DNA of 64,000 nt from Escherichia coli (lineage in GTDB: Bacteria > Pseudomonadota > Gammaproteobacteria > Enterobacterales > Enterobacteriaceae): assembly GCF_003334765.1 (NCBI RefSeq), contig NZ_QOWT01000007.1; one strand, 5' to 3'. The translations under genes and the position numbers were made by a program. Each line of letters begins with the position of its first letter. Position 1 is the first letter of the stretch. Below are positions 4,984 through 24,701 of the stretch, piece by piece. A model generated the notes under the pieces. The model was not told the DNA's origin. It did no database searches and saw only the letters and a program-made list of their open reading frames with translations.

Positions 4984-6128
4984 AAATCACCAAAATTACC
5001 ACGTATCGTTTACCTCCCCGCTGGATGTTCCTGAAAATTGAAACCGATGAAGGCGTGGTCGGTTGGGGCGAGCCCGTGATCGAAGGCCGCGCCCGTACGG
5101 TGGAAGCGGCAGTTCACGAGCTGGGTGACTATTTGATTGGTCAGGATCCATCGCGCATCAATGACTTATGGCAAGTGATGTATCGCGCCGGATTCTATCG
5201 CGGCGGTCCGATCCTGATGAGCGCCATCGCCGGGATTGACCAGGCGTTATGGGATATCAAAGGTAAAGTGCTGAATGCGCCGGTCTGGCAACTGATGGGC
5301 GGCCTGGTTCGCGACAAAATTAAAGCCTACAGTTGGGTTGGCGGCGATCGTCCGGCGGATGTTATCGACGGCATTAAAACGCTACGCGAAATCGGCTTCG
5401 ATACCTTCAAACTGAACGGTTGTGAAGAACTGGGGCTAATTGATAACTCCCGCGCGGTAGATGCGGCGGTTAACACCGTGGCACAAATTCGTGAAGCTTT
5501 TGGCAATCAGATTGAGTTTGGTCTTGATTTCCACGGTCGCGTCAGCGCGCCGATGGCGAAAGTGCTGATTAAAGAACTGGAGCCGTATCGCCCGCTGTTT
5601 ATTGAGGAGCCGGTGCTGGCGGAACAAGCCGAATACTACCCGAAACTGGCGGCACAAACGCATATTCCACTGGCGGCGGGTGAACGCATGTTCTCACGCT
5701 TCGATTTTAAACGCGTGCTGGAGGCAGGTGGTATTTCGATTCTGCAACCGGATCTCTCCCACGCGGGCGGTATTACCGAATGCTACAAAATCGCCGGAAT
5801 GGCAGAAGCCTATGACGTGACCCTTGCGCCGCACTGTCCGCTCGGACCGATTGCACTGGCGGCTTGCCTGCATATCGACTTTGTTTCCTATAACGCCGTA
5901 CTTCAGGAACAAAGTATGGGAATTCATTACAACAAAGGCGCGGAGTTACTCGACTTTGTGAAAAACAAAGAAGACTTCAGCATGGTCGGCGGCTTCTTTA
6001 AACCGTTAACGAAACCGGGCTTAGGCGTGGAAATCGACGAAGCTAAAGTGATTGAGTTCAGTAAAAATGCCCCGGACTGGCGTAATCCGCTCTGGCGTCA
6101 TGAAGATAACAGCGTAGCAGAGTGGTAA
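4980..6128 (+). CDS. dgoD: D-galactonate dehydratase (enolase superfamily)
   Basis: 382-aa ORF starting [31 protein letters not shown]; ATGA overlap with dgoA. Confidence 0.9.
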
Positions 6129-6247
6129 TTCCTGCCACGTAAGCCCCTCATCGGGCACTAAAACAGCAATACAAAAATATAACCCTCTGTAAATTACAGG
6201 GCATGGTGAGCGGCTTCGCTATGCCCAAAATCTGGAGAAAGCTCGCT

Positions 6248-7540
6248 ATGGATATTCCCGTTAATGCAGCAAAGCCGGGGCGTCGGCGTTATCTGACGCT
6301 GGTGATGATCTTTATTACGGTAGTCATTTGTTATGTCGACCGCGCCAACCTGGCCGTGGCTTCCGCCCATATTCAGGAAGAGTTCGGCATTACCAAAGCG
6401 GAAATGGGCTATGTATTTTCGGCCTTCGCCTGGCTTTATACGCTATGTCAGATCCCCGGCGGTTGGTTTTTAGATCGCGTAGGTTCTCGCGTGACTTATT
6501 TTATTGCGATATTTGGCTGGTCAGTGGCGACTTTATTCCAGGGCTTTGCCACGGGCTTAATGTCATTAATTGGTCTGCGCGCGATAACCGGTATTTTCGA
6601 AGCGCCTGCTTTCCCGACCAATAACCGGATGGTGACCAGCTGGTTCCCGGAACATGAACGCGCTTCTGCCGTTGGTTTTTATACGTCTGGTCAGTTTGTC
6701 GGTCTGGCGTTTCTGACGCCGCTGCTGATCTGGATTCAGGAGATGTTGAGCTGGCACTGGGTGTTCATTGTCACTGGTGGTATCGGCATTATCTGGTCGC
6801 TGATTTGGTTTAAGGTTTATCAGCCGCCGCGCCTGACCAAAGGTATCAGCAAAGCTGAACTGGATTACATTCGTGATGGCGGCGGTCTGGTGGATGGTGA
6901 TGCGCCGGTGAAGAAAGAGGCGCGTCAGCCGTTAACAGCCAAAGACTGGAAACTGGTGTTCCATCGTAAACTGATCGGCGTTTATCTTGGGCAATTTGCG
7001 GTGGCTTCTACACTGTGGTTTTTCTTAACCTGGTTCCCGAACTATTTAACCCAGGAAAAAGGAATCACGGCGCTGAAAGCAGGCTTTATGACCACGGTGC
7101 CATTCCTCGCGGCGTTTGTCGGCGTCCTGCTCTCTGGCTGGGTAGCGGATCTGCTGGTACGTAAGGGCTTTTCACTGGGCTTTGCGCGTAAAACGCCGAT
7201 TATCTGCGGCTTGCTGATCTCCACCTGCATTATGGGCGCTAACTACACTAACGATCCGATGATGATTATGTGCCTGATGGCGCTGGCATTCTTCGGTAAC
7301 GGTTTTGCTTCGATTACCTGGTCGCTGGTTTCTTCTCTGGCACCGATGCGCCTGATTGGTTTAACCGGCGGCGTGTTTAACTTCGCCGGTGGTCTGGGCG
7401 GCATCACCGTTCCGCTGGTGGTGGGGTACCTGGCGCAGGGTTACGGTTTCGCACCTGCACTGGTTTATATCTCCGCCGTCGCGTTGATTGGCGCGCTCTC
7501 TTATATCCTGCTGGTGGGCGATGTGAAGCGCGTTGGCTAA
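6248..7540 (+). CDS. dgoT: D-galactonate:H+ symporter (MFS)
   Basis: ORF 6203..7540; ATG at 6248 gives 430 aa ([15 protein letters not shown]...), matching remembered DgoT length. Confidence 0.85.
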
Positions 7541-17861: not shown

Positions 17862-19814
17862 ATGAATTCGTTACAAATCTTGAGTTTTGTCGGTTTTACG
17901 CTGCTGGTGGCGGTGATCACCTGGTGGAAGGTCCGCAAAACAGATACCGGATCGCAACAAGGCTATTTTCTTGCCGGACGTTCACTAAAAGCGCCGGTTA
18001 TTGCCGCTTCGTTAATGCTAACCAACCTTTCCACGGAACAACTGGTCGGCCTTTCCGGGCAGGCCTACAAAAGCGGCATGTCGGTGATGGGCTGGGAAGT
18101 GACTTCAGCGGTGACGCTGATCTTCCTCGCGCTAATCTTTTTACCGCGCTATCTGAAGCGCGGCATTGCCACCATCCCCGATTTTCTGGAGGAACGTTAT
18201 GATAAAACGACGCGTATTATCATCGACTTCTGCTTCCTAATTGCCACCGGCGTCTGCTTTCTGCCGATTGTTCTCTACTCCGGCGCGTTGGCGCTCAACA
18301 GCCTGTTTCACGTCGGGGAATCGCTACAGATTTCTCACGGTGCGGCTATCTGGCTACTGGTAATTTTGCTTGGTCTGGCGGGAATTTTGTATGCGGTGAT
18401 CGGCGGACTGCGCGCAATGGCAGTGGCGGACTCCATCAACGGTATTGGGCTGGTTATCGGCGGGTTGATGGTGCCGGTATTTGGCCTGATCGCGATGGGC
18501 AAGGGCAGCTTTATGCAGGGCATTGAGCAACTCACCACCGTTCACGCCGAGAAATTAAACTCAATCGGTGGCCCGACCGATCCCTTGCCGATTGGCGCGG
18601 CATTTACCGGTTTGATTCTGGTGAACACCTTTTACTGGTGTACAAATCAGGGCATCGTGCAACGCACGCTGGCGTCAAAAAGCCTGGCGGAAGGGCAAAA
18701 GGGGGCGCTGTTAACGGCGGTGCTGAAAATGCTCGACCCGCTGGTACTGGTGCTGCCAGGGTTGATTGCGTTTCATCTGTATCAGGATTTACCGAAAGCC
18801 GACATGGCCTACCCGACGCTGGTCAATAACGTTCTGCCAGTGCCAATGGTGGGTTTCTTCGGCGCGGTGTTATTTGGTGCGGTGATCAGTACCTTCAACG
18901 GCTTTCTGAATAGCGCCAGTACGTTATTCAGTATGGGTATTTACCGTCGCATCATTAACCAGAATGCCGAGCCGCAGCAGCTGGTCACCGTCGGGCGCAA
19001 ATTTGGTTTCTTTATCGCTATCGTTTCGGTGCTGGTCGCGCCGTGGATCGCCAACGCGCCGCAGGGGCTGTATAGCTGGATGAAACAGCTCAACGGCATT
19101 TACAACGTGCCGCTGGTTACCATCATCATTATGGGCTTTTTCTTCCCGCGCATCCCGGCGCTGGCGGCAAAAGTAGCGATGGGGATTGGCATAATCAGCT
19201 ACATCACCATCAACTATCTGGTGAAGTTCGACTTCCATTTCCTCTATGTGCTGGCCTGTACGTTCTGCATCAACGTGGTCGTGATGCTGGTGATCGGTTT
19301 TATCAAACCGCGCGCCACGCCGTTCACCTTCAAAGATGCGTTTGCGGTGGACATGAAACCGTGGAAAAACGTCAAGATCGCGTCAATTGGCATCCTGTTC
19401 GCGATGATTGGCGTCTATGCCGGGCTGGCTGAATTCGGCGGCTACGGTACGCGCTGGTTAGCGATGATCAGTTATTTCATTGCCGCCGTAGTGATTGTCT
19501 ACCTGATTTTTGACAGCTGGCGGCGGAAGGTATTCGCTTTAATTCCGCCTACACCTGTTCACCGGTTTGTACGCCTGCACGGGCCGGACTATTTACCGGT
19601 ATCTACGCTAACCAGTCCGGCCCGTGGACCAACAACGTCGCGCCAGGCAAAAACATCTCCACTATGGGGCGCTACTTTAAGGATGCCGGCTATCACACCT
19701 GTTACATCGGCAAATGGCATCTCGACGGTCATGACTATTTCGGCACTGGCGAGTGTCCGCCGGAGTGGGACGCTGATTACTGGTTCGATGGGGCGAACTA
19801 TCTTAGCGAACTGA
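17862..19814 (+). CDS. yidK: SSS-family Na+/solute symporter YidK with an aberrant 3' end (reads out of frame into sulfatase DNA)
   Basis: Multi-TM transporter sequence to about codon 550 (...AAVVIVYLIFDSW), then about 100 codons of Pro/Arg/Ser/Thr-rich sequence overlapping the sulfatase gene in another frame; native end probably lost. Confidence 0.7.
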   Translation: MNSLQILSFVGFTLLVAVITWWKVRKTDTGSQQGYFLAGRSLKAPVIAASLMLTNLSTEQLVGLSGQAYKSGMSVMGWEVTSAVTLIFLALIFLPRYLKRGIATIPDFLEERYDKTTRIIIDFCFLIATGVCFLPIVLYSGALALNSLFHVGESLQISHGAAIWLLVILLGLAGILYAVIGGLRAMAVADSINGIGLVIGGLMVPVFGLIAMGKGSFMQGIEQLTTVHAEKLNSIGGPTDPLPIGAAFTGLILVNTFYWCTNQGIVQRTLASKSLAEGQKGALLTAVLKMLDPLVLVLPGLIAFHLYQDLPKADMAYPTLVNNVLPVPMVGFFGAVLFGAVISTFNGFLNSASTLFSMGIYRRIINQNAEPQQLVTVGRKFGFFIAIVSVLVAPWIANAPQGLYSWMKQLNGIYNVPLVTIIIMGFFFPRIPALAAKVAMGIGIISYITINYLVKFDFHFLYVLACTFCINVVVMLVIGFIKPRATPFTFKDAFAVDMKPWKNVKIASIGILFAMIGVYAGLAEFGGYGTRWLAMISYFIAAVVIVYLIFDSWRRKVFALIPPTPVHRFVRLHGPDYLPVSTLTSPARGPTTSRQAKTSPLWGATLRMPAITPVTSANGISTVMTISALASVRRSGTLITGSMGRTILAN

Positions 19815-20908
19815 CGGAAAAAGAGATTAGCCTGTGGCGCAATGGCCTAAACAGCGTCGAAGATTTACAGGCGAACCATATCGACGAAACCTTCACCTGG
19901 GCGCATCGTATCAGCAATCGGGCGGTGGATTTTCTGCAACAGCCTGCGCGCGCAGACGAGCCTTTCCTGATGGTGGTTTCGTATGATGAGCCGCATCACC
20001 CGTTCACCTGTCCGGTGGAGTATTTAGAGAAATACGCTGATTTTTACTACGAGCTGGGCGAGAAAGCACAGGATGACCTGGCTAACAAACCGGAACATCA
20101 CCGCTTATGGGCGCAGGCGATGCCATCGCCAGTCGGTGATGACGGGCTTTATCACCATCCGCTCTATTTTGCCTGTAATGACTTTGTTGATGACCAAATC
20201 GGACGGGTCATCAATGCCTTAACGCCAGAGCAACGTGAAAATACGTGGGTTATTTATACCTCCGATCACGGCGAAATGATGGGCGCACATAAGCTGATCA
20301 GTAAAGGGGCGGCGATGTATGACGACATCACCCGCATTCCGCTGATCATCCGTTCGCCGCAAGGGGAGCGGCGACAGGTCGATACGCCAGTCAGTCATAT
20401 CGATTTACTGCCGACAATGATGGCGCTGGCAGATATTGAAAAACCAGAGATTCTGCCGGGGGAAAATATCCTTGCCGTGAAAGAGCCACGCGGCGTGATG
20501 GTGGAATTTAACCGCTACGAGATTGAGCATGACAGCTTTGGCGGTTTTATTCCGGTGCGTTGCTGGGTGACGGATGACTTTAAACTGGTACTCAACCTCT
20601 TCACCAGTGATGAACTTTACGATCGCCGTAATGACCCAAATGAAATGCATAACCTGATCGATGATATCCGTTTTGCAGACGTTCGCAGCAAAATGCATGA
20701 CGCCTTATTGGATTACATGGACAAAATTCGCGATCCGTTCCGCAGTTACCAATGGAGTCTGCGTCCGTGGCGTAAAGATGCACGGCCGCGCTGGATGGGG
20801 GCGTTTCGTCCACGTCCACAAGATGGCTATTCGCCAGTTGTACGCGACTATGACACCGGCCTACCGACACAAGGGGTGAAGGTGGAGGAGAAAAAACAGA
20901 AGTTCTGA
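19514..20908 (+). pseudogene. yidJ: Cys-type sulfatase YidJ, 5'-truncated (no start codon ahead of the catalytic motif)
   Basis: Sulfatase frame is open only from 19514 (TGA at 19511-13) and begins QLAAEGIRFNSAYTCSPVCTPARAGLFTG (C-x-P-x-R FGly motif); first in-frame ATG is at 19664, downstream of the motif. Confidence 0.7.
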
Positions 20909-20954
20909 CGATAATGCCCGCTGATGATCACCCGGCGGGCATTATTCAGGCTGC

Positions 20955-21404
20955 TTAAACCAGTGAACCGCCGGTCAGGAAGGAAAAGATAAGGAATATC
21001 AGCAAAATGCTGCACACGATGCCGATACCAAAAAGCAAGGTATGGAAAGCCAGCGTCCCGCCGCCAAAAACCAGCGCGCCGCGAATGCCCCAGCGATTTT
21101 CCTTACGCATACCGCCAATAAATGCGCAAAGTAGCGCAGCAATGGCCAGTGCGATACCGCTTTGATTGAGGATTTTATCGACATCTACGTCCTCTTTTTT
21201 CTCCACGGTGGTAATTTTTTCGCCTTTTATTCCGGCGAGAAGACCTCTTTTAATTTCAGCCGTTTTGTCCGCCACGATGCTTTCAAACGTTGGCGGTGGT
21301 GCGGAGAAAGGGCCGAATGAAAAGTGGATAATCCCCATCATTAAAGCGATGGCACCGAACAGCATGCCCAATGAACTGATTTTATTTTGAGCTATGATAC
21401 CCAT
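20955..21404 (-). CDS. yidI: Inner membrane protein YidI
   Basis: 149 aa from MGIIAQNKISSLGMLFGAIALMMGIIHF; several TM segments. Confidence 0.75.
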   Translation of the reverse strand: MGIIAQNKISSLGMLFGAIALMMGIIHFSFGPFSAPPPTFESIVADKTAEIKRGLLAGIKGEKITTVEKKEDVDVDKILNQSGIALAIAALLCAFIGGMRKENRWGIRGALVFGGGTLAFHTLLFGIGIVCSILLIFLIFSFLTGGSLV

Positions 21405-21511
21405 CTGACCTCCTTGTAGCGGATGGCAAAAGCATATCAGGAAACGGGCGGACGAAATTCTTAAAAAAACCGCTAAAGGTAGAGCGTTAGTGAAATTGCA
21501 AAGGAGCAACA

Positions 21512-21859
21512 ATGAAAATTTCCCGCCTCGGAGAAGCGCCTGATTACCGCTTCTCGCTGGCTAATGAGCGTACTTTTCTGGCGTGGATCCGTACTGCACT
21601 AGGATTTCTGGCGGCGGGGGTTGGGCTTGATCAACTTGCGCCAGATTTCGCCACGCCCGTCATTCGCGAACTGCTGGCGTTGTTGTTGTGTCTGTTTTCC
21701 GGCGGGTTAGCGATGTATGGCTACTTGCGCTGGTTACGCAATGAAAAAGCGATGCGTCTGAAAGAGGACCTGCCCTACACCAACAGCTTATTAATCATTA
21801 GCTTAATATTGATGGTCGTGGCGGTGATCGTTATGGGACTGGTGTTGTATGCCGGATAG
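21512..21859 (+). CDS. yidH: Inner membrane protein YidH (DUF202)
   Basis: 115-aa ORF with hydrophobic segments. Confidence 0.8.
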   Translation: MKISRLGEAPDYRFSLANERTFLAWIRTALGFLAAGVGLDQLAPDFATPVIRELLALLLCLFSGGLAMYGYLRWLRNEKAMRLKEDLPYTNSLLIISLILMVVAVIVMGLVLYAG

Positions 21860-22211
21860 CCGCAAAGCCAGACGCATTGCCGACCCAGGACTGCAGCCGG
21901 AGCGCACATCACTGGCGTGGTTTCGTACCATGCTGGGCTACGGCGCGTTGATGGCGTTGGCTATCAAACACAACTGGCACCAGGCGGGCATGTTATTCTG
22001 GATTTCGATTGGCATTCTCGCCATCGTGGCGCTGATCCTCTGGCACTACACCCGTAATCGCAATTTAATGGATGTCACGAATAGCGATTTTTCCCAATTT
22101 CACGTAGTCCGTGACAAATTTTTGATCTCCCTCGCGGTGTTATCTCTCGCAATACTGTTTGCTGTAACGCATATACATCAACTTATCGTATTTATTGAGA
22201 GAGTCGCATGA
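21849..22211 (+). CDS. yidG: Inner membrane protein YidG
   Basis: 120-aa ORF; overlaps the yidH 3' end by 11 nt; membrane segments. Confidence 0.8.
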   Translation: MPDSRKARRIADPGLQPERTSLAWFRTMLGYGALMALAIKHNWHQAGMLFWISIGILAIVALILWHYTRNRNLMDVTNSDFSQFHVVRDKFLISLAVLSLAILFAVTHIHQLIVFIERVA

Positions 22212-22705
22212 CAGGAAGTCAGGTCATTGATGCTGAAGAGGACAGGCATAAACTGGTTGTAGAGTACAAGGATGCTCTGCAACCTGCCGATTTTTATCAC
22301 AATTTCAAACAGCGGGGCATCCGCTCCGTACAGCTCATTCCCTATCTTGAATTTGATGACCGGGGCGATCTGACGGCCGCTTCGGTGACAGCAGAGCTGT
22401 GGGGGAAATTTTTAATTGCCCTGTTCGAGTGTTGGGTGCGGGCAGATATCAGTCGTATCTCGATTGAGCTTTTTGACGCCACCTTACAAAAATGGTGTGG
22501 CAGCGAAAACCCGCAACCGCGCTGTGACTGCCAGGCGTGCGACTGGCATCGCCTGTGCCCGCACGCTCGGCAGGAGACGCCAGACAGCGTGCTTTGTGCG
22601 GGCTATCAGGCGTTTTATTCTTACTCCGCACCGCATATGCGGGTGATGCGTGATCTGATAAAGCAGCATCGTTCTCCCATGGAGCTGATGACGATGCTGC
22701 GGTGA
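22208..22705 (+). CDS. yidF: YidF, Cys-rich protein resembling the C-terminal (SPASM-like) part of an anaerobic sulfatase maturase
   Basis: 165 aa; Cys cluster CDCQACDWHRLCP; no N-terminal radical-SAM CxxxCxxC motif; ATGA overlap with yidG. Confidence 0.75.
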   Translation: MTGSQVIDAEEDRHKLVVEYKDALQPADFYHNFKQRGIRSVQLIPYLEFDDRGDLTAASVTAELWGKFLIALFECWVRADISRISIELFDATLQKWCGSENPQPRCDCQACDWHRLCPHARQETPDSVLCAGYQAFYSYSAPHMRVMRDLIKQHRSPMELMTMLR

Positions 22706-24518: not shown

Positions 24519-24591
24519 TAATATTTGGACAAAACGCAAACTGTGATCGATACTCAACTATGCACTAAATACGTCAAAATTCGTGCCGAAA

Positions 24592-24620
24592 TTGCGCGTT
24601 CTGCGCGGAACACGTATACT
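24592..24620 (+). promoter_or_regulatory. Candidate sigma-70 promoter of IstR-1
   Basis: TTGCGC (24592-97), 17-bp spacer, TATACT (24615-20), placing the start near 24627. Confidence 0.4.
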
Positions 24621-24626
24621 TTCAGT

Positions 24627-24701
24627 GTTGACATAATACAGTGTGCTTTGCGGTTACCAGCCGCAGGCGACTGACGAAACCTCGCTCCGGCGGGGTTTTT
24701 T
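24627..24701 (+). ncRNA. istR: IstR-1 antitoxin sRNA (about 75 nt)
   Basis: Starts GTTGACATAATACAGTGTGCT, a 20/21 direct-repeat copy of 24369-24389 in the tisAB leader (so antisense to the divergent transcript); ends in hairpin CCTCGCTCCGGCGGGG plus TTTTTT. Confidence 0.55.

Follow-up and report, generated by a model that had tools for sequence, protein, structure and literature searches.

A recent yidK/yidJ deletion and a reduced homologue of anaerobic sulfatase maturases, YidF, at one locus of Escherichia coli

Anaerobic sulfatase-maturing enzymes (anSMEs) are radical S-adenosylmethionine (SAM)/SPASM proteins of ~ 370 residues, represented by the NCBIfam model TIGR03942 and exemplified by Clostridium perfringens anSMEcpe (Protein Data Bank (PDB) accession number 4K36), Klebsiella pneumoniae AtsB and Escherichia coli AslB. 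In anSMEcpe, auxiliary cluster Aux I is ligated by C255, C261, C276 and C330, and Aux II by C317, C320, C326 and C348 (PMC5715301). The window analyzed here, a 64,000-nucleotide stretch of E. coli DNA (contig NZ_QOWT01000007.1, assembly GCF_003334765.1), encodes YidF, a 165-residue protein that shares with the anSMEs the last barrel units, the CX2CX5C...C motif of Aux II, the C-terminal helix and the setting in a sulfatase gene cluster, but lacks the CX3CX2C motif, the SAM-binding core and the Aux I ligands. Twitch-domain radical SAM proteins resemble YidF in possessing a reduced SPASM-type module with a single potential auxiliary cluster site. However, Twitch domains keep an Aux I-like site and have no CX2CX5CX3C motif (PMC5715301), whereas YidF keeps Aux II, has lost Aux I, and is not attached to any radical-SAM domain. 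The neighboring yidJ gene encodes in strain K-12 a type I (formylglycine) sulfatase (b3678). The window keeps codons 35–497 of the same protein, the CTPAR codons among them, but its copy is without the start codon and residues 1–34, and the frame is closed upstream, which makes it a pseudogene. The reading that we favor, with a probability of roughly 0.6, is that two unrelated events are overlaid at this locus: a recent deletion across yidK and yidJ, and an old, selectively maintained loss of domains in yidF.

The YidF protein sequence encoded by the window is that of K-12 YidF (b3674). A Pfam scan of YidF returned no match, neither to Radical_SAM (PF04055) nor to SPASM (PF13186), and the similarity is visible only with the NCBIfam models of full-length anSMEs, with phmmer against the PDB and by fold search. 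TIGR03942 aligned YidF residues 17–101 with positions 160–245 of the 363-position profile, with an E value of 5e-21 and a score of 75.1 bits, which is below the equivalog cut-off of 349.45 bits. The phmmer alignment with 4K36 placed YidF residues 27–95 on residues 175–246 and YidF residues 105–152 on residues 314–370 of anSMEcpe. An AlphaFold2 model built on 63 orthologues has a pLDDT of 82.8 and a pTM of 0.80, with low values only over the cysteine region at residues 101–130, and the fold search matched it to the anSMEcpe structures 4K36–4K39 only (E value of 8e-6, TM score of 0.62). Judged by these sequence and model comparisons, YidF is a homologue of the C-terminal half of an anSME. The original prediction, made from the DNA sequence alone, had proposed a likeness to the C-terminal, SPASM-like part of the maturases, which was to fall if no significant similarity could be detected. 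The homology is borne out by all three approaches, but the protein is more reduced than was then supposed; the loss of the first half of SPASM had been overlooked.

Block mapping onto the 370-residue orthologue of Citrobacter werkmanii shows that E. coli YidF consists of the equivalents of residues 1–9, 152–241, 301–318 and 323–370, separated by three in-frame deletions. The first, of 142 residues (10–151 of the orthologue), takes out the entire radical-SAM core, and with it the CX3CX2C and GGE motifs. Three Aux I cysteines disappear along with the first half of SPASM in the second, of 59 residues, and the third, of 4 residues, removes the fourth Aux I cysteine. Because the original start codon and the first nine residues are kept, yidF has lost internal segments rather than its 5′ end. 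The parts that are left are the last β/α barrel units, the CX2CX5C...C motif of Aux II and the C-terminal helix (residues ~ 131–165). The cysteine cluster CDCQACDWHRLCP is present and the CX3CX2C motif is absent from the 165-residue sequence, in agreement with the earlier description of a cysteine cluster without a radical-SAM motif. Based on the ligand assignment in PMC5715301 and the alignment with 4K36, C108, C111, C117 and C130 of YidF correspond to the complete set of Aux II ligands. Deletion has removed the radical-SAM ligands and every Aux I ligand, and only half of the eight auxiliary-cluster cysteines of an anSME have a counterpart. YidF cannot be a maturase because the radical-SAM and Aux I ligands are all gone, and, judged by its sequence, it can neither bind SAM nor generate formylglycine. 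In thousands of E. coli genomes the Prokaryotic Genome Annotation Pipeline (PGAP) labels YidF 'radical SAM protein', and RefSeq labels it 'uncharacterized protein YidF'. The PGAP name is misleading because the protein has neither the CX3CX2C motif nor a Pfam Radical_SAM or SPASM match.

The window derives from the E. coli chromosome. Strains ML35, H3 and others share 100% identity with a 4.5-kb query around the locus, a query that was matched in 5421 of 5426 complete E. coli genomes. The open reading frames (ORFs) of the window agree with the annotation of an identical strain and with K-12 in the gene order yidL(−) yidK(+) yidJ(+) yidI(−) yidH(+) yidG(+) yidF(+) emrD(−), and the 3′ end of yidF lies 7 nt from the stop codon of the convergent emrD. 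The features of the locus are as follows.
17862..19814, plus strand: yidK′, Na+/solute symporter gene; 650-residue ORF, pseudogene according to PGAP.
19509..19524, plus strand: deletion junction from the K-12 alignment; 159 bp gone between 19516 and 19517.
19517..20908, plus strand: ′yidJ, remnant of a Cys-type sulfatase gene, codons 35–497, without start codon.
20958..21404, minus strand: yidI, gene of a small inner-membrane protein, outside the conserved module.
21512..21859, plus strand: yidH, DUF202 membrane protein; opens the conserved yidH-yidG-yidF module.
21849..22211, plus strand: yidG, DUF202 membrane protein; stop codon overlaps the yidF start (ATGA).
22208..22705, plus strand: yidF, 165 residues, internally deleted anSME.

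Alignment with K-12 shows that the window is without 159 bp that are present there (locus L002, positions 6804–6962). In K-12 this stretch is flanked by an 8-bp direct repeat, CTGGCGGC, one copy of which survives at window positions 19517–19524, and the loss is for this reason attributed to deletion between short direct repeats. The deletion takes the last 17 codons of yidK together with the first 34 codons of yidJ. YidK is identical to the K-12 protein up to residue 554 of 571 and then runs through 96 out-of-frame codons of yidJ. On the yidJ side, the ATG and residues 1–34 are lost, including the first strand with the metal-binding Asp12, and the frame is closed by a TGA that precedes Leu35 by two codons. 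Translation in this frame could begin no earlier than Met84 (window position 19664), downstream of the Cys52-Thr-Pro-Ala-Arg signature of K-12 YidJ, the codons of which remain in the window upstream of this first usable start. No translatable yidJ product is thus predicted to include the residue destined for formylglycine. Intact YidJ orthologues carry the Pfam Sulfatase domain, and K-12 YidJ matches arylsulfatase and choline-sulfatase models with scores below their cut-offs; the window yidJ, with residues 1–34 deleted, does not have a complete N-terminal sulfatase domain. The claim that yidJ, a Cys-type sulfatase gene, is truncated at its 5′ end is sustained by this alignment.

The exact junction, counted with a 48-nt probe spanning it, occurs in 45 of the 5426 complete genomes, and the 159-bp segment itself is found in 5070. 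Of the ~ 350 genomes without the segment only these 45 have the deletion of the window; roughly 300 others are without it for different reasons, which include the complete loss of yidLKJ. Such loss of the entire yidL, yidK and yidJ genes, with yidI, yidH, yidG and yidF kept, was seen in E. coli SCPM-O-B-8794 (L011) and in E. albertii NBRC 107761 (L021). The variety of these losses indicates that the sulfatase module was lost repeatedly and in different ways. The 463 remaining yidJ codons show zero amino acid differences from K-12. Because few genomes have the exact junction and yidJ is otherwise unchanged, the yidK/yidJ deletion is regarded as recent. PGAP flags both genes as incomplete pseudogenes in strains identical to the window, and yidK and yidJ of the window strain are genuine young pseudogenes.

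The history of yidF was traced with a peptide-pattern scan for the conserved YidF tail at the DNA level, covering one genome per bacterial species, which yielded 63 loci, all in Enterobacteriaceae. Their usual layout is yidE-[yidL yidK yidJ (yidI)]-yidH-yidG-yidF-[dsdA dsdX]-emrD. In ~ 27 species the yidF position is occupied by a full-length gene encoding 367–376 residues and starting with MTGCQVMAKPASSRCNLxCRYCFY. The carriers include C. werkmanii, C. braakii, C. sedlakii, C. amalonaticus, Kluyvera, Trabulsiella, Pseudocitrobacter, Atlantibacter, Kosakonia, Yokenella and one Leclercia. These syntenic orthologues contain CX3CX2C, score 458–484 bits against the TIGR03942 cut-off of 349, and carry the Pfam Radical_SAM and SPASM domains, both of which are matched by the C. 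werkmanii orthologue. In some genera the full-length anSME gene stands beside yidJ, so that the intact sulfatase-maturase pair for which the original prediction had advised a synteny search does exist. Sequence, fold and this arrangement together place YidF in common descent with the anSMEs and in a sulfatase cluster. Shortened yidF genes are found in at least 36 other species, with the following lengths.
165 residues: every Escherichia lineage sampled.
176–178 residues: C. freundii complex; Salmonella arizonae/diarizonae.
166–176 residues: Klebsiella, Raoultella.
167–174 residues: Leclercia, Silvania.
166–169 residues: Superficieibacter and relatives.
192, 220 and 249 residues: single species.
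All short forms are without the core and without the Aux I half of SPASM. Except in Superficieibacter/UBA5654, they open with MTG, the ATG either overlapping the yidG stop codon or coming immediately after it.

Of the 63 loci, 59 have an open yidF frame; the four others are the E. albertii type strain, one metagenome-assembled genome (MAG) with Ns, and two assemblies in which neighboring genes are fragmented as well. Nei-Gojobori ratios of nonsynonymous to synonymous divergence (dN/dS), calculated by group, have medians of 0.12–0.18 for short yidF, compared with 0.08–0.14 for the full-length gene and 0.01–0.14 for neighboring genes. Ten within-clade pairs of short yidF gave dN/dS values of 0.11–0.34, with bootstrap upper 95% bounds of at most 0.58, far from the value near 1 expected of a pseudogene. 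Nor does yidF, with 165 intact codons, show the broken frame or missing start seen in yidK and yidJ of the window. The strongest constraint was found in the last 34 codons (GYQAF..APHMRVMRDLIKQHRSPMELM..), where dN/dS is 0.05–0.12. In this tail synonymous differences amount to a pS of 0.34–0.49 per site, whereas pN is 0.02–0.09, and because synonymous sites diverge while the amino acids stay, the constraint is exerted at the level of the protein rather than of the DNA. All 36 short forms have kept three of the Aux II cysteines, and 28 of them have the fourth as well, whereas the deleted Aux I cysteines occur in 0 of 36 and the orphan Aux I cysteine in 22 of 36. These patterns of divergence indicate that short yidF is maintained by purifying selection and is not currently decaying. 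The dS of yidF among Escherichia lineages is ~ 0.7, compared with 0.36–0.52 for yidH, yidG, emrD and yidJ, which suggests weaker codon-usage constraint or low expression.

Several observations bear on the number of reductions. In a neighbor-joining tree of 157 shared columns, a simple method in which the long branches of the short forms may attract each other, the Leclercia/Silvania short forms cluster with the full-length Leclercia gene (82% bootstrap), a partial deletion in Kosakonia nests inside Kosakonia (100%), and strain RIT691 pairs with the full-length gene of Enterobacter CC120223 (95%). Genus-specific tail extensions are common to short and long forms, the DNA flanks of short and long loci of the same genus are 85–94% identical, and short forms compared between clades are not more similar to one another than they are to long forms. 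A single ancient short allele present in all genera was rejected as the sole explanation on the basis of the short-form similarities and the Leclercia/Silvania grouping. The tree, the tail extensions and the similarities therefore indicate that full reduction took place at least twice and partial reduction several more times; two is a minimum, with one or more events behind the Escherichia, C. freundii group, Salmonella and Klebsiella forms. Every deletion that could be measured at the DNA level is in frame, namely 450 nt and a net 162 nt in Leclercia, and 142, 59 and 4 codons in E. coli. Partly reduced genes also occur. Kosakonia oryziphila has a 350-residue form with a 23-residue deletion in SPASM, and RIT691 has a 360-residue form in which CX3CX2C is broken. 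Metagenomic forms of ~ 310 residues (P0119, P0120 and P0127; L075 positions 6001–6936) have an open N-terminal frame, mutated CX3CX2C and GGE motifs and a deleted SPASM half, and look like intermediates between the enzyme and the remnant. P0119 sits after yidH-yidG, with no sulfatase gene nearby.

Across these loci the constant unit is yidH-yidG-yidF, and yidLKJ is accessory. Short yidF with yidH-yidG but without the sulfatase is found in the C. freundii complex, Leclercia, Silvania, K. michiganensis and others, and yidJ is kept beside short yidF in Escherichia, S. arizonae, K. oxytoca and Superficieibacter. A full-length yidF anSME with yidH-yidG and no adjacent sulfatase was observed at L040, L058, L060, L063 and L066 (Kosakonia), L069 (Yokenella) and L050. 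At the Yokenella locus, yidH comes immediately after yidE. An alternative sulfatase was considered for the 4-kb interval that separates yidE from yidH in Kosakonia and Klebsiella; this was rejected, as the region upstream of yidH in the two loci examined (L040, Kosakonia, and L033, Klebsiella) consists of yidP-glvCB and a glycosidase gene. In two Atlantibacter loci (L054 and L055) and in L003 (MAG DCOG01000032) the whole yidL-yidK-yidJ-yidH-yidG-yidF cluster, with full-length yidF, adjoins ridA-pyrBI instead of lying between yidE and emrD, and the cluster therefore moved as a unit in that lineage. DUF202 genes were also considered as general companions of anSMEs. This was rejected since two more distant anSMEs adjoin sulfatases without DUF202, and the association of yidHG with yidF is therefore peculiar to this enterobacterial cluster. 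The yidI gene, located between yidJ and yidH only in Escherichia and in a few Citrobacter and Salmonella loci, is missing from most syntenic loci and looks like a later insertion into the cluster.

The favored reading would account for the window as follows. Deletion between the 8-bp repeats would have inactivated the cytoplasmic Cys-type sulfatase YidJ and altered the C-terminus of the YidK symporter. Independently, yidF would descend from the anSME of an ancestral enterobacterial cluster yidL-yidK-yidJ-yidH-yidG-yidF and would have lost the radical-SAM core and the Aux I half of SPASM in frame before Escherichia diversified. The remnant, presumably still translated from the original start that overlaps the yidG stop, would be a small protein without catalytic activity that might have retained the binding of one [4Fe-4S] cluster. 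Rather than in YidJ maturation, its role may lie with the co-transcribed DUF202 proteins YidH and YidG, or else with a redox or docking partner that engages the C-terminal helix. In strains with an intact yidJ, for instance K-12, formylglycine formation would have to use another system, such as AslB or a Cys-type system of E. coli mentioned in the literature. AslB is a full-length E. coli paralogue that is 46% identical to the full-length YidF orthologues and has a similar tail, and along with the literature-mentioned system it is a candidate for maturing intact YidJ. A further and tentative step, which we consider possible but rather doubtful, is that short YidF arose repeatedly and convergently as a radical-SAM maturase was cut back to a stand-alone module of ~ 165 residues, in which the C-terminal docking or electron-relay part was kept, the catalytic body was discarded, and a function of its own was exercised alongside YidH/YidG, unrelated to formylglycine.

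A number of observations weigh against this account. The constraint on yidF is relaxed relative to the full-length enzyme, with a dN/dS of 0.33 over the cysteine region in Escherichia. When short and long genes of the same genus are compared, the retained middle segment is 70–79% identical at the DNA level, well below the identity of the flanks. YidF of E. coli and Citrobacter share ~ 50% amino acid identity, whereas YidH, YidG, YidJ and EmrD share 80–97%. The C. freundii group has another residue in place of one Aux II cysteine, which weakens the Fe-S proposal, and frameshifted alleles are found in the E. albertii type strain and in several 145-residue E. coli variants. The scan behind the 63 loci required the tail motif and introduces an ascertainment bias, in that fully decayed copies were invisible to it, and dS is partly saturated in the deeper comparisons within Citrobacter and Superficieibacter. 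The link to YidH/YidG draws on gene order and on the overlapping stop and start codons only, and the literature searched contained neither experimental nor expression data on YidF. The same literature held no paper tying yidF to sulfatases, its mentions of the gene being incidental, and no description of YidF as a maturase remnant.

Some of these observations also feed the view that the whole locus is decaying and that yidF is a non-functional pseudogene fragment that happens to be open. Such a view fits the loss of every catalytic element, the faster evolution of YidF relative to its neighbors, the deletion sizes that differ by lineage, the degenerate intermediates, the frameshifted alleles and the true breakage of yidK and yidJ in the window strain. 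It is nonetheless quite unlikely, and largely refuted by the dN/dS values of the ten independent clade pairs, with upper bounds well below 1. The low tail dN/dS despite high synonymous divergence, the frame that has stayed open in at least 36 shortened orthologues across saturated synonymous divergence, the three invariant cysteines and the in-frame nature of all deletions measurable at the DNA level also argue against it. The original prediction of a locus in decay accordingly applies to yidK and yidJ but not to yidF, which is under purifying selection and is kept in species without yidJ. Its union of the two lesions into one ongoing decay is not supported, as their ages and selective regimes differ completely, one being a rare recent deletion and the other a reduced gene fixed in all Escherichia sampled.

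Alternatively, YidF might serve YidJ as a non-catalytic accessory, acting as a scaffold, chaperone or electron-transfer module that helps an enzyme such as AslB convert Cys52 to formylglycine. The gene derives from the anSME of YidJ's own sulfatase cluster, its product keeps the surface-exposed Aux II motif, a proposed electron relay (PMC5715301), a full-length paralogue is kept in E. coli, and four groups (Escherichia, S. arizonae, K. oxytoca and Superficieibacter) hold yidJ and short yidF together. However, many species whose locus has no yidJ conserve short yidF to the same degree, and the substrate-peptide contacts of an anSME, as far as the architecture of 4K36–4K39 suggests, lie largely in the deleted regions, which renders this role unlikely. 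The conservation could also reflect a nucleic acid element in the 3′ part of yidF (a terminator, a small RNA or the 3′ end of the convergent gene) or translational coupling to yidG, for which the 7-nt distance to the emrD stop and the overlap of the yidG stop with the yidF start would provide a basis. This is highly improbable. Synonymous sites of the tail diverge freely while its amino acids do not, the tail is equally conserved with emrD or dsdA as convergent neighbor, no Rfam family matched in the region, and coupling alone would not constrain amino acids.

Rfam gave no match within yidK-yidF, only the istR small RNA downstream (RF01400, 150 bits, window positions 24572–24701), which adjoins tisB as part of a known toxin-antitoxin locus, tisB/istR-1, and has no connection with the genes discussed here. 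A promoter and terminator scan of the locus was uninformative. The PADLOC defence models had no match for YidF, YidG, YidH or YidI, and a full-length YidF orthologue showed only generic radical-SAM/viperin similarity to these models.

For annotation, yidK and yidJ of this strain are young pseudogenes, and YidF should not be named 'radical SAM protein'. E. coli strains that are yidJ-positive have no cognate maturase at the locus, which fits an old puzzle of how Cys-type sulfatases are matured in E. coli, one named in the title of Benjdia et al. 2007 as cited in PMC6189696. The sulfatase lesion is an ordinary one, and the maturase remnant, as an example of how a radical-SAM/SPASM enzyme evolves by reduction, is of modest interest. 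The series at the single syntenic position of yidF is unusually complete, leading from full-length genes through degenerate forms of ~ 310–360 residues to forms of 165–178 residues, in which the enzyme has been pared down in frame with one sub-module still under selection. It also offers a concrete starting point for the study of what the DUF202 proteins YidH and YidG do.

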